From: Escherichia coli
GTDB taxonomy: Bacteria; Pseudomonadota; Gammaproteobacteria; Enterobacterales; Enterobacteriaceae
Strand: one strand, 5' to 3'
NCBI RefSeq assembly: GCF_003334385.1
Contig: NZ_QOWN01000018.1
DNA: 64,000 nucleotides
Made by a program: the position numbers and the translations under genes. Every line of letters starts with the position of its first letter. Position 1 is the first letter of the stretch. This document shows positions 25,134-28,100 of this stretch, in pieces. The notes under the pieces were generated by a model, which worked only from the letters and a program-made list of their open reading frames with translations, made no database searches and had not been told where the DNA came from.

Positions 25134-28100
25134 TTACTCAACAGGTTGCGGACGCGCAGGAGCGGCAGAGGCATGATGTGTTGCCGTATGACCACCTGCG
25201 GCACCTTTACCTTCGAAGGCAAAAGTAGGGCGCTGCCAGTCACTGTGACGCGGTGCCTCCGGAACATATTCCGGTGCTGGAGCGCGCGTCATTGGCGCGG
25301 TAGCGTGGTTATGCTCAACGGTGACCTCAGGTTCGACCGCAGCTACCGTTTCAACTTCTGCTGCGACTTCAGCGACTACTGGCGCGGCAGGTTGAGCAAC
25401 AACTTCAGGTTCAGCAACTACAACCTCAGCAGTTTCGACAACTTCTTCAATATCTGCCGTCTCTTCCTGCGGTTCAACCACCGGTTCTGCTTGTTCTGCA
25501 ACTTCCTGGGCTACGGCAACATCAGACTCGGTAATCACCTGCGGCTGTTCAGTTACCGCGGCAGCGATCACTTCAGGATGCGTCGTTTCAACCACTTCCG
25601 GTTGCGGTTCGGCAACCTGAACGGGGGCTTCTACGACACCGGCCACTTCTTCAACAACTGGCGCGCTAACAACCGGTTCGATAGCGGCGGCGACAGGGAC
25701 CTCAGTCACCATCGGCTGCACATGTACTTCTTCCTGTTCGCGCTGCTCTTCAACCTGTACATCTTGCGGACGTACAATTGGATAGCGGATCCAGACTTTG
25801 CCAGAGGCCAGTTCCGGAGACGCGCACGCTACGGTCAACGGCATTGGCGACTGGGTTGGATAACGCTCGTCACGATAGCGACGACGACGCTGACCACTTA
25901 CGCGCAGGTGACGAGGCGAGCGGCGAGAACGACGCGGCATGCCACCGTTGTCACGGTTATCAGCATTGTTCTCTTCTTGCTGTTCTGGTGCAGTTTGCGC
26001 TACGACTGGCAGCGGGACTTTCACCAGTTCTGTGCGTGGAGCTGGCGCTTCCTGAACAATTGGTTCGGCAGCGACAGTTTCTTCAACCACCGGTGCGACT
26101 ACCGCTTCTTCGGCTACGCTTTGCTCGTAACGCACTTTCTGATTGAGCTGACGCTGTTTACGACGCGGCTGAACCGGACGTACACGTTCTTCCTGTTCGG
26201 TTTCCTGAACAGATTGCTCTTCAACATTCAGCGCCTTCGCTTCTTGTTGCGCCTGACGTTTATCATCATTACGGCGGCGGCTACGTTCACGACGCGGCGC
26301 TTGCTGCTCGTCGGCGGTACGCGCTTTTTCCGTTACCTCAGCCTGCTGACGGCTCTCACGCGTCTCGGCAGTCTGCTGCTGTGCCTGGCGACGATTACGA
26401 CGGTTTTCTTCGCGATTATCGCTGCCTTCAGTACGTTCACTACGGGTGTCGCGGCGCTCATTACGGTCACGGCGGTTGTTCTGACGAGGCTTGCGACGAT
26501 CCTGTTGACGTTCCGGTTTCGCTTCTGCTTTCGGTGCTGGTTGCTCGGTCGGTTTGGTTTCTTCACCACCGCTGAACAGCGCTTTCAGTGCGCCGAAGAA
26601 GCGGCTCAACAGCCCAGGTTGTGCAGGAGCTGCTGGTGTTGCCGGTGCAGCTTTCGGTGCTGGAGCTACAACAGGCGCGGCAGGTTCAGCTGGCGTTGGC
26701 GCAGGCGGCACATCCGGCATGGCAAAGGTTGCCAGCGCAGGTTGTTCCGGACGCTTACGTTCAGCGAACTCTTCTTCAGACGGCAGCGCCATCGCTTCTT
26801 CATGCAGCTTCGGCAGCATGTAGCTTAAGGTTGGGGTTTCTTCCCCTTTACGCACGCGCAGCACGTGGTAGTGCGGGGTTTCCATCTGATCGTTTGGCAC
26901 AATTACACAGCGCACACCGTCCTGACGAGTTTCAATGGCATTTACCGCAGAACGTTTTTCATTCAGCAGGTAAGAAGCGATTGGCACAGGAACAATGGCG
27001 TGAACTTCCTGGGTGTTCTCTTTCAGCGCTTCTTCTTCGATCAGACGCAGAATAGAGAGCGACAGCGATTCGTTGTCACGCACGGTGCCAGTACCAGAAC
27101 AACGCGGACAAACGTGATGACTGGATTCACCCAGTGATGGGCTCAGGCGCTGACGGGACATTTCCAGCAGGCCAAAGCGAGAAATATGGCTGATTTGAAT
27201 ACGCGCACGGTCCTGACGCACCGCTTCACGCAGACGGTTTTCTACCGCACGCTGGTGGCGTACTGGCGTCATGTCGATGAAGTCGATAACAATCAGGCCG
27301 CCGAGGTCACGCAGGCGCAGCTGACGAGCAATCTCATCGGCAGCTTCGAGGTTAGTGTTAAACGCGGTTTCTTCGATATCGCCGCCGCGGGTCGCGCGTG
27401 CGGAGTTGATGTCGATGGCCGTTAACGCTTCGGTGCTGTCGATAACAATGGAACCACCAGACGGCAGACGAACTTCACGCTGGAAGGCGGACTCGATCTG
27501 TGACTCGATCTGGTAGTGGCTGAACAGCGGGATCTCGCCGGTGTACAGTTTGATTTTGCTGCTGAAATCCGGGCGACCTAATGCAGCGATATGCTGACGT
27601 GCCAGTTCGAGCACTTTCGGGTTATCGATAAGGATTTCGCCGATGTCCTGACGTAAGTAATCGCGGAATGCGCGAACGATTACGTTGCTCTCCTGATGAA
27701 TCAGGAACGGGGCCGGGCGGCTTTCAGCGGCTTTTTTGATGGCTTCCCAGTGTTTCAGACGGAAGCTTAAATCCCATTGCAGCGCCTCAGCAGATTTGCC
27801 GACGCCAGCGGTGCGCACGATAAGCCCCATGCCTTCCGGCAGTTCAAGGCTTGCCAGTGCTTCTTTTAATTCGGTACGGTCGTCGCCTTCGATACGGCGA
27901 GAAATGCCACCCGCGCGCGGGTTGTTCGGCATCAGAACCAGATAGCTACCCGCCAGACTGATAAAGGTGGTTAATGCCGCGCCTTTGTTGCCGCGCTCTT
28001 CTTTATCGATCTGAACAATGACTTCCTGACCTTCACGCAACACATCTTTAATGTTGGGACGACCATGAGCACTGTAGTTAGCAGGGAAATATTCGCGGGC

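Follow-up and report, generated by a model that had tools for sequence, protein, structure and literature searches.

The rne locus and its opposite strand

We analysed a stretch of Escherichia coli DNA of 64,000 nucleotides (the window), in which the region of rne, a minus-strand gene, is 100% identical to K-12 MG1655. The rne product scores 2008 bits against the NCBIfam equivalog NF008074 (cutoff 908), with residues 1-1061 covered, and 571 bits against TIGR00757 (Rne/Rng family). Upstream of the coding sequence lies a match to Rfam RF00040, rne5, the autoregulatory rne 5' UTR (28344-28680, minus strand; 260 bits against a gathering score of 180). RNase E peptides in the PDB match residues 813-850 and 1004-1061, with 3gcm_D corresponding to residues 1021-1061 and 9qh0_D to residues 1004-1061; the degradosome microdomains of the C-terminus (the enolase and PNPase binding peptides) are thus identical to experimentally solved segments. 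Structures containing peptides from this part of the protein establish rne as the frame that codes.

25134..28319, minus strand: rne, coding sequence of ribonuclease E, 1061 amino acids plus stop (open reading frame list, NF008074, RefSeq annotation of the identical K-12 sequence)
25137..26825, minus strand: rne codons 499-1061, the end of the catalytic half and the disordered scaffold region, without TTA, CTA or TCA by codon count
26574..26627, minus strand: membrane-targeting sequence, rne residues 565-582 (residue numbers from PMC4435900; sequence found in the translation)
26388..26510, minus strand: AR1, arginine-rich RNA-binding segment, rne residues 604-644 (PMC4435900; Arg-rich in the translation)
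26127..26165, minus strand: segment of the rne scaffold (PMC4435900)
25878..25934, minus strand: AR2, arginine-rich segment, rne residues 796-814 (PMC4435900)
25770..25820, minus strand: segment of the rne scaffold (PMC4435900; PDB 3h8a_E = residues 823-850, 5ohg_C = residues 813-848)
25137..25259, minus strand: PNPase binding site, rne residues 1021-1061 (PMC4435900; PDB 3gcm_D)

Opposite the 3' half of rne, the initial annotation had reported an open reading frame (ORF) of 560 amino acids, the coordinates of which match the ORF list, and had quoted two repetitive peptides of RNase E, both of which are present in the rne translation.

25146..26828, plus strand: antisense ORF of 560 codons, TTG start at 25146, first ATG at 25173 (ORF list), read here as a non-coding 'shadow'
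25128..25130, plus strand: in-frame TAA from which the stop-free stretch runs, just beyond the rne 3' end (sequence read)
26826..26828, plus strand: TAA that closes the antisense ORF, the complement of rne Leu498 TTA, last of 11 stop-generating codons (sequence read, codon count)

From stop to stop, the open stretch on the plus strand spans 25131..26825, or 563 codons. The ORF lies in the codon-aligned antisense frame, with codon position 1 opposite rne position 3, and each of its codons is the exact reverse complement of an rne codon. Stops (TAA, TAG or TGA) are possible in this frame solely opposite sense TTA (Leu), CTA (Leu) and TCA (Ser), and the 11 such codons of rne all fall within residues 5-498. 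The antisense translation has a mirror-like composition (R 15%, F 13%, L 12%, T 9%). Over the same stretch, the remaining two antisense frames hold 21 and 8 stops, leaving one frame of three open.

Amino-acid composition and the probability of an open frame

The rne tail (residues 499-1061) is composed of 14.7% Ala, 14.6% Glu, 11.9% Val, 11.4% Pro, 9.9% Arg and 8.2% Gln, with 2.7% Leu and 3.6% Ser against 10.0% and 6.6%, respectively, in the N-terminal half; its GC1/GC2/GC3 is 0.80/0.48/0.45. The codon-aligned antisense frame is open because Leu and Ser are few in the tail (15 Leu and 20 Ser, 35 of the 563 residues) and none of them is encoded by TTA, CTA or TCA. The intrinsically disordered scaffold abounds in Ala, Glu, Val, Pro, Arg and Gln, and since none of its few Leu and Ser codons is stop-generating in the K-12 allele, the mirror frame stays open between the rne stop, which it slightly overshoots, and the TTA at Leu498.

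In a gene of average composition in the window, stop-generating codons arise at 2.3% per codon, which puts the probability of a 563-codon stop-free stretch at about 2e-6. The next longest codon-aligned antisense open stretch among 52 proxy genes in the window measures 374 codons, most being about 60-200. Once the RNase E amino-acid sequence is given, the probability of an open tail is 0.008 under window codon usage, 0.015 with codons used as in rne residues 1-498 and 0.05 when rne's own usage is resampled, the probability formula being (1-fTTA-fCTA)^nLeu x (1-fTCA)^nSer (bioRxiv 10.1101/724807). Synonymous resamplings of rne yield a longest shadow ORF with a median of 253-302 codons.

Composition lifts the probability of an open tail from about 1e-6 to about 1e-2, and the rest is luck rather than detectable codon bias, since the N-terminal half of rne has TTA at 8 of its 50 Leu codons. 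The complete absence of stops, a 1-in-100 event under average codon usage, was counted against reading the ORF as a shadow of rne, as was a post-hoc Fisher test of stop-generating codons (0/35 in the tail versus 11/83 in the N-terminal half; p = 0.03). The initial annotation had attributed an almost stop-free opposite strand to skewed codon usage; this describes the codon-aligned frame correctly but not the other two, and the cause is the Leu- and Ser-poor composition together with luck.

We also considered that the open frame might stem mainly from translational selection on rne, with the rare codons TTA, CTA and TCA avoided in the tail. CTG indeed makes up 12 of the 15 tail Leu codons, and codon frequencies taken as typical of highly expressed genes would raise the probability of an open tail to about 0.19. 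The N-terminal half, however, is carried on the same mRNA and uses TTA as stated above and TCA for 2 of 33 Ser, and GC3 is lower in the tail than in that half (0.45 against 0.56). Across 79 species stop-generating codons are in fact commoner in the tail, where TCA provides 14.2% of Ser (6.9% in the N-terminal half) and stop-generating codons 8.9% of Leu (7.1%), and some four orders of magnitude are explained by amino-acid composition without any codon preference. Selection on codons is thus very unlikely to be the main source of the open frame, and codon bias was rejected as its main cause because TTA is used freely in the N-terminal half of rne.

Conservation and polymorphism of the antisense frame

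Among the rne genes of 79 Enterobacterales, the tail is stop-free in the codon-aligned antisense frame in 5 and interrupted in 74; E. albertii has five such stops and Salmonella three. The codon usage of each species' own N-terminal half predicts 7.5 open tails. Selection holding the antisense frame open was rejected on this comparison and on the tail being enriched, not depleted, in TCA.

Within E. coli, the frame is open in 19 of 23 intact sampled alleles, which diverge from K-12 by only 2-3%, and carries stops in the other four. Six changes create these stops, and three of them leave the rne protein unaltered (L571, L770 and L828, each to TTA or CTA; L571 and L828 change from TTG to TTA and so place TAA in the antisense frame). 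Strains E400634 and M19 are among those with natural alleles of this silent kind. Polymorphism in the tail follows rne: it comprises 177 synonymous and 86 non-synonymous changes in the sense frame versus 53 synonymous and 210 non-synonymous (80% non-synonymous) in the antisense frame, and variable sites fall on rne codon positions 3, 1 and 2 in the numbers 195, 64 and 25. Synonymous diversity of rne per codon is 0.31 in the overlapped half and 0.30 in the non-overlapped half. Being unreduced in the overlap, this diversity agrees with the E. coli polymorphism as a whole, in which we saw no sign of purifying selection on the antisense frame.

Coding signals and searches for the antisense product

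The initial annotation had proposed comparing codon usage and GC3 on the two strands, and the outcome favours rne, with codon-usage log-odds of +0.345 log2 per codon for the rne frame and -0.103 for that of the antisense ORF. The antisense protein matches no Pfam family even at E <= 10 and no NCBIfam family, and a search of 5.8 billion clusters returned nothing but miscalls of this locus. A collection of 15 billion proteins contains about 293 stray calls of the ORF. Two such calls carry the RefSeq name 'hypothetical protein' and are assigned to Pseudomonas aeruginosa, from contigs of 289-345 nt. PGAP/RefSeq annotation in the genomes listed gives only rne at the locus and never the antisense ORF.

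Two terminator-like hairpins lie in front of the ORF:

24980..25008, plus strand: strong terminator-like hairpin and T-run after flgL, upstream of the antisense ORF (12-pair stem, then TTTTTTT)
25091..25114, minus strand: terminator-like hairpin after rne, the plus-strand version of which precedes the antisense ORF (hairpin scan)

Promoter-like sites for the ORF are at chance level, with 1 found against 0.9 expected in a consensus scan, which by its nature cannot exclude expression. A weak Shine-Dalgarno (SD)-like GGAG/GAGG stands 5' of the first ATG (25173).

These data bear on whether the ORF might be a genuine young overlapping gene of E. coli, translated from its own mRNA and comparable to the antisense genes reported from EHEC and Pseudomonas aeruginosa. 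Its great length, only about 1% likely under average codon usage, its being open in most sampled E. coli alleles and the SD-like motif would all fit such a gene, and there are reports from other bacteria that long ORFs of this antisense type are translated (PMC8850804, PMC6294744). Stops nevertheless break the frame in some E. coli alleles and, further afield, in E. albertii, Salmonella and most Enterobacterales, at the rate expected without selection; its substitutions are predominantly non-synonymous with rne-synonymous diversity not reduced, and poor codon usage, mirror-image composition, lack of a family match and, as far as a consensus scan can show, an upstream terminator and a promoter signal not above chance all speak against a gene. 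Our literature search returned no statement for or against translation of the rne-antisense ORF. Zehentner et al., who surveyed overlapping genes in E. coli, likewise do not name rne in their text or in 18 supplementary files, which is weak evidence because the tables may use locus tags. Taken together, an overlapping gene is exceedingly unlikely.

We instead read the ORF at 25146..26828 on the plus strand as a non-coding shadow of rne, with a probability of about 0.93 judged from sequence data, and infer that it is not translated into a functional protein. As an accidental mirror of the amino-acid make-up of RNase E, the ORF would be an ordinary finding. The description of this locus as a gene-finder trap was accurate, given the stray calls, the codon statistics, the non-conservation, the polymorphism that follows rne, and the absence of both family and annotation. 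The rne case is thus a clean negative, illustrating that an ORF does not become a gene by being the longest one left unannotated at its locus, that the codon-aligned antisense frame of a Leu- and Ser-poor disordered region can be open by arithmetic, and that gene callers sometimes emit the result.

Repeats and length variation in the tail

The initial annotation had described the segments as repetitive and as a plausible site of length variation between strains. The repetition holds as compositional bias at the protein level but not as real repeats in the DNA: Tandem Repeats Finder (TRF) detected no tandem repeats of substance in the rne tail, giving just one 12-nt x2 match, and the direct-repeat families found by a repeat finder consist of 60-85% matches of 14-37 nt. 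Variation in repeat number was rejected as a general description, as TRF and the repeat finder showed no substantial DNA repeats.

Length variation exists and is rare, rne having the same length in 39 of 40 rank-spaced E. coli genomes; between species of Enterobacterales, RNase E varies in length from 997 to 1251 aa. The rare E. coli length variants are products of slippage or recombination between short repeated motifs of the PVVE, VAEV and AD type. Strain GN4738 carries a 609-nt in-frame rne deletion with its breakpoint at copy 1 of one such repeat:

26082..26094, minus strand: 13-nt direct repeat ACCGGTGGTTGAA, encoding PVVE, copy 1 (breakpoint of the GN4738 deletion)
25473..25485, minus strand: 13-nt direct repeat ACCGGTGGTTGAA, copy 2 (sequence comparison)

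An in-frame inversion in draft assemblies

Five draft assemblies from 2016 (LQUO, LQWE, LVRK, LVSR and LVTL) contain an in-frame inversion of rne codons 573-739. Their assembly accessions are GCA_001519935.1, GCA_001521335.1, GCA_001621075.1, GCA_001621725.1 and GCA_001622115.1. Its breakpoints coincide with a perfect inverted repeat:

26102..26114: 13-nt perfect inverted repeat, arm 1, CCGCTTCTTCGGC as read on the plus strand (inversion breakpoint in the five draft assemblies)
26592..26604: 13-nt perfect inverted repeat, arm 2, GCCGAAGAAGCGG as read on the plus strand, 477 nt from the first arm

In this allele rne nt 1716-2218 are inverted, the 1061-aa ORF is retained and no stop is created; RefSeq names the product "ribonuclease E" (WP_249440627.1, WP_249516596.1). 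With no stop in the codon-aligned antisense frame, the product of the inverted allele would still be an RNase E of full length. Antisense translation would take the place of residues 577-735, which include AR1, the RhlB site and the latter half of the membrane anchor, whereas the catalytic half, AR2 and the enolase and PNPase sites would stay intact. By the same token, either an inversion or a mis-assembly in the rne tail still gives an intact 1061-aa ORF annotated 'ribonuclease E'.

This allele raises the possibility that the stop-free frame is used biologically, through a reversible or recurrent recoding inversion (an intragenic inverton) at the 13-nt repeat. Exactly the same inversion is present in all five drafts on at least three rne allelic backgrounds, contigs of 47-108 kb continue across both junctions, and two contigs end as fold-backs, as expected with both orientations in the sample; the geometry moreover sets the stop-free frame in phase, and recoding intragenic invertons have been described (10.1101/2023.03.11.532203). 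Against this, all 5,426 complete genomes of E. coli searched lack the inversion, the wild-type query matching one place in every genome and the inverted query at least two, and a low-power metagenome scan found the inverted junction in 0 contigs versus 18 with the wild-type junction. The collection of 15 billion proteins holds 7 sequences carrying the inversion, all from NCBI, and apart from the inverted segment the alleles match common wild-type lineages at 100% identity. A 13-nt repeat is, furthermore, short for a site-specific invertase, both arms were found together in E. coli only among 80 species, and recoding yields a segment that reads as hydrophobic, Arg-rich nonsense.

The five assemblies fall into two adjacent 2016 accession blocks, which suggests, without proving it, a single project and pipeline and hence a library fold-back or assembly artefact; a literature search with their accession prefixes gave no hits. 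The inversion in the five drafts is therefore probably an artefact. On the sequences at hand, the chance that the 13-nt repeats mediate a real, recurrent in-frame rne inversion in E. coli appears slim, and biological use of the stop-free frame by this route slimmer still. If real, the inversion alleles would represent natural variants that remodel the degradosome, whether by a switch or by recurrent mutation, and only through them would the shadow frame ever be expressed.

Comparison with known systems

The tail described here agrees with the scaffold of gamma-Proteobacteria RNase E as described by Ait-Bara, Carpousis and Quentin (PMC4435900), in which an Arg/Asn/Gln-rich part precedes an AEPV-rich part, and shares with it disorder, the microdomains MTS, AR1, HBS, AR2, EBS and PBS, and plasticity of length between species. 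That work is a protein study that leaves the antisense frame undiscussed, whereas here this frame was analysed; in the K-12 rne DNA we detected no tandem repeats, yet short repeated motifs do mediate rare indels.

The rne inversion resembles the invertons of Chanin et al. ('Intragenic DNA inversions expand bacterial coding capacity', 10.1101/2023.03.11.532203) in being flanked by inverted repeats, intragenic and recoding without stops. It differs in being known from assemblies rather than from reads of both orientations, in its 13-nt repeat and in that no invertase is implicated.

As a long antisense ORF inside an annotated gene, the rne-antisense ORF is comparable to asa, ano and others of EHEC and to olg1/olg2 of P. 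aeruginosa (PMC6294744, PMC5960689, PMC8850804). RNA-seq, Ribo-seq, promoters, phenotypes or purifying selection stand behind those candidates, while the rne-antisense ORF is unconserved, dominated by non-synonymous change and equipped with expression signals not beyond chance.

The frame -1 shadow ORFs of bioRxiv 10.1101/724807 ('Long antiparallel open reading frames are unlikely to be encoding essential proteins in prokaryotic genomes'), a study that does not mention rne, have the same geometry, obey the same TTA/CTA/TCA rule and formula, and led to the same conclusion from non-conservation. The rne ORF differs from them as a single, unusually long case (563 codons) that is driven by a Leu- and Ser-poor disordered region rather than by strong codon bias or high GC.

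rne and the open frame opposite its 3' half

The window is E. coli K-12, with positions 25134-26830 matching MG1655 and other K-12 records at 100%. This segment occurs as a single copy in 5,426 of 5,426 complete E. coli genomes, and its sole annotation there is 'rne: ribonuclease E'. The relevant features are:

25134..28319, minus strand: rne, 1061 aa (ORF listing)
28344-28680, minus strand: rne 5' UTR element RF00040, directly upstream of rne
25146..26828, plus strand: antisense ORF, 560 aa, TTG start (ORF listing)
24980-25008, plus strand: 12-pair hairpin and T-run ending flgL, followed by the rne terminator hairpin

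The coordinates of the 560-aa ORF in the initial annotation agree exactly with the ORF listing. The rne product matches NF008074, the NCBIfam equivalog for RNase E, along its full length (2008 bits; cutoff 908), and peptides of residues 813-850 and 1004-1061 appear in structures solved for complexes of RNase E and its partners. Together with the 5' UTR element, this leaves no doubt that the rne strand is the coding strand.

In the antisense ORF, codon position 1 faces rne position 3 and position 2 faces position 2, placing it in the codon-aligned frame -1, in which a stop arises only opposite a sense TTA, CTA or TCA (bioRxiv 10.1101/724807). All 11 such codons in rne (TTA x8, CTA x1, TCA x2) lie within residues 5-498, and the last of them, Leu498 TTA, forms the TAA at 26826-26828 that terminates the antisense ORF. 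The tail of the protein (residues 499-1061) contains none, and a TAA at 25128-25130, barely beyond the rne stop codon, directly precedes the open stretch. Over this length the remaining two antisense frames hold 21 and 8 stops, so the opposite strand, initially described as almost stop-free, is so in the codon-aligned frame only.

Other features were noted around the locus. A 124-aa ORF at 28400-28774 (+), which we take to be the dubious gene yceQ, lies antisense to the RF00040 element (28344-28680, -); PGAP annotated no gene for it in the K-12 record examined, and gene callers report a 106-aa product antisense to the rne 5' UTR in draft assemblies. It is possibly a second antisense trap at this locus. 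The clinical isolate 98232 (NZ_CP173446.1) carries a gene pair encoding a GNAT-family N-acetyltransferase and a DUF1778 protein (locus positions 784-1568) between flgL and the rne 3' end, resembling a toxin-antitoxin module. In strains Z22-2 and AZ 187, the annotation places IS1 and IS26 transposase genes in the flgK-flgL-rne stretch, and the rne allele is otherwise the query sequence.

The antisense ORF is very probably non-coding

A comparison of both strands, a check proposed initially, showed that codon usage favours the rne frame: with the remaining window genes as training set, log-odds per codon were +0.345 for rne and -0.103 for the antisense ORF. The antisense translation mirrors the sense composition (R 15.4, F 13.2, L 12.3, T 8.9%) and matches no NCBIfam family and no Pfam family, even at E <= 10. 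Promoter-like sites on the plus strand are at chance level (1 found vs 0.9 expected).

Antisense stops are present in four of 23 intact E. coli rne alleles, a set made up of the GTDB representative, 12 alleles from metagenomes and 10 from rank-spaced complete genomes. Some stop-creating changes are silent in rne (L571, L770 and L828 to TTA or CTA), and others alter the protein (P559S, A554S, V947L). Across 12 aligned E. coli alleles, tail variants comprise 177 synonymous and 86 non-synonymous changes in the rne frame, and 53 and 210, respectively, in the antisense frame; of the variable sites, 195, 64 and 25 are at positions 3, 1 and 2 of the rne codons, respectively. The overlapped and non-overlapped halves have per-codon synonymous diversities of 0.31 and 0.30; since rne-synonymous diversity is not lowered in the overlap, there is no signal of purifying selection for an overlapping gene.

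Constraint on the protein itself differs extremely along rne, residues 1-498 showing 1 non-synonymous and 147 synonymous variants among the 12 alleles. Two human gut metagenome contigs (L101 and L102, coverage about 2x) contain apparent rne frameshifts of -23 nt and -2 nt, most likely assembly errors rather than real alleles.

We further collected 80 rne loci, one genome per Enterobacterales species, and scored the codon-aligned frame in the 79 complete genes. It is interrupted nearly everywhere, with 1 to 20 stops in most genera: the tail holds five in E. albertii and three in Salmonella enterica arizonae, and the GTDB representative E. coli has one opposite residue 947. Stop-free tails were observed in 5 of 79 species vs 7.5 expected from N-terminal-half (residues 1-498) codon usage and tail Leu/Ser counts, computed species by species. 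Stop-generating codons are not depleted in the tail across the 79 species, TCA making up 14.2% of Ser codons and TTA+CTA 8.9% of Leu codons there, vs 6.9% and 7.1%, respectively, in the N-terminal half. The open K-12 tail is a single sample from this neutral distribution.

Amino-acid composition favours an open frame

The tail is rich in A (14.7%), E (14.6%), V (11.9%), P (11.4%), R (9.9%) and Q (8.2%), with Leu at 2.7% and Ser at 3.6% vs 10.0% and 6.6% in residues 1-498; only 35 of its codons could yield an antisense stop. Reference codon usage was taken from 52 long ORFs of the window (TTA or CTA, 16.4% of Leu; TCA, 10.3% of Ser).

Probability of 563 codons without an antisense stop
Average-composition gene: about 2e-6
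RNase E protein, codons as in the window ORFs: 0.008
RNase E protein, codons as in rne residues 1-498: 0.015
RNase E protein, codons redrawn at the frequencies of rne itself: 0.05

Composition contributes about four orders of magnitude to the openness. Synonymous resampling of rne gives a longest shadow ORF with a median of 253-302 codons, so rne is bound to have a long antisense ORF, and for this to reach the full 563 codons is a 1-5% chance. Codon bias was not evident as a cause: the N-terminal half encodes 8 of its 50 Leu by TTA, and GC3 drops from 0.56 there to 0.45 in the tail. The next longest frame -1 stretch in the window, 374 codons, lies in a 477-codon gene at 41821-43254 (+) with a single TTA/CTA/TCA codon, where strong codon bias instead of composition may be responsible.

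Repeats and length variation

Composition bias and protein-level tandem repeats are family features of the non-catalytic region of RNase E (PMC4435900). In the tail DNA we found no tandem repeats, TRF yielding only a 12-nt x2 match (score 34), and direct-repeat families are weak. The strain-to-strain length variation initially held plausible exists in kind but is rare in E. coli: aligned length is exactly 1697 nt in 39 of 40 rank-spaced genomes, and 5,425 of 5,426 complete genomes reach >= 80% query coverage. The exceptions are slippage-type events, and between species RNase E ranges from 997 to 1251 aa.

Length variants of rne
GN4738 (NZ_CM177114.1, urinary isolate): 609-nt in-frame deletion, 858-aa product, residues about 743-945 lost
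1053-aa variant: ETTHPEVI lost between PEVV and PEVI
1063-aa Shigella variant: AD duplicated in tandem
Metagenome allele L108: VAEV lost within VAEVAAEV

The GN4738 deletion, which takes out the arginine-rich segment AR2 (residues 796-814) and the enolase-binding site, is bounded by two copies of a 13-nt direct repeat, ACCGGTGGTTGAA, that encodes PVVE (window 25473-25485 and 26082-26094).

Antisense gene calls and an apparent inversion

PGAP never annotated the antisense ORF in the genomes examined. Among the 5.8 billion protein clusters searched, four were clusters of antisense calls (268, 23, 1 and 1 member sequences; 14,856 in the RNase E cluster, for scale), bearing out the warning of a gene-finder trap. 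The calls come mostly from ENA metagenome assemblies and usually have the ATG at 25578 as start codon, which gives 416 aa. Two RefSeq entries clustering with the ORF, WP_343171840.1 and WP_241365695.1 ('hypothetical protein, partial [Pseudomonas aeruginosa]'), derive from contigs of 289 and 345 nt and are probably contaminating E. coli DNA with a shadow-ORF call.

One match to the antisense ORF bore the name 'ribonuclease E'. Its cluster comprises the full-length 1061-aa RefSeq proteins WP_249440627.1 (six contigs) and WP_249516596.1, in which residues 577-735 are the translation of the antisense ORF, plus five partial proteins. Here, rne nt 1716-2218 are inverted exactly between the arms of a perfect 13-nt inverted repeat (CCGCTTCTTCGGC / GCCGAAGAAGCGG), and the allele keeps 1061 codons because the geometry puts the stop-free frame in phase.

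26102-26114 and 26592-26604: arms of the 13-nt inverted repeat, the gene's only substantial one

The inversion appears in five 2016 E. coli draft assemblies (LQUO, LQWE, LVRK, LVSR, LVTL) and involves at least three rne backgrounds, of which one, apart from the inversion, matches common clinical lineages at 100%. Two inversion contigs stop at or just past the repeat, one of these two as a fold-back; such contig ends suggest that reads of these assemblies contained both junction types. That the allele is real is nonetheless very improbable: it occurs in 0 of 5,426 complete genomes, where the wild-type query maps to one place each and the inverted query never to fewer than two; its junction is found in 0 metagenome contigs vs 18 for the wild-type control; and the accessions of all carriers sit in two neighbouring blocks of 2016. 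The likeliest explanation is an artefact of library preparation or assembly specific to one project, e.g. fold-back priming at the repeat. Whether real or artefactual, the inversion illustrates that a stop-free mirror frame lets rearrangements of the rne tail remain 'intact' ORFs and slip past annotation checks.

Overall, the initial observation was confirmed and its interpretation supported, with refinements on frame, cause, repeats and length variation. Novelty at this locus would lie only in the inversion allele, were it real; the antisense ORF itself offers nothing new, being a textbook example of a shadow ORF in frame -1 of a well-known gene.
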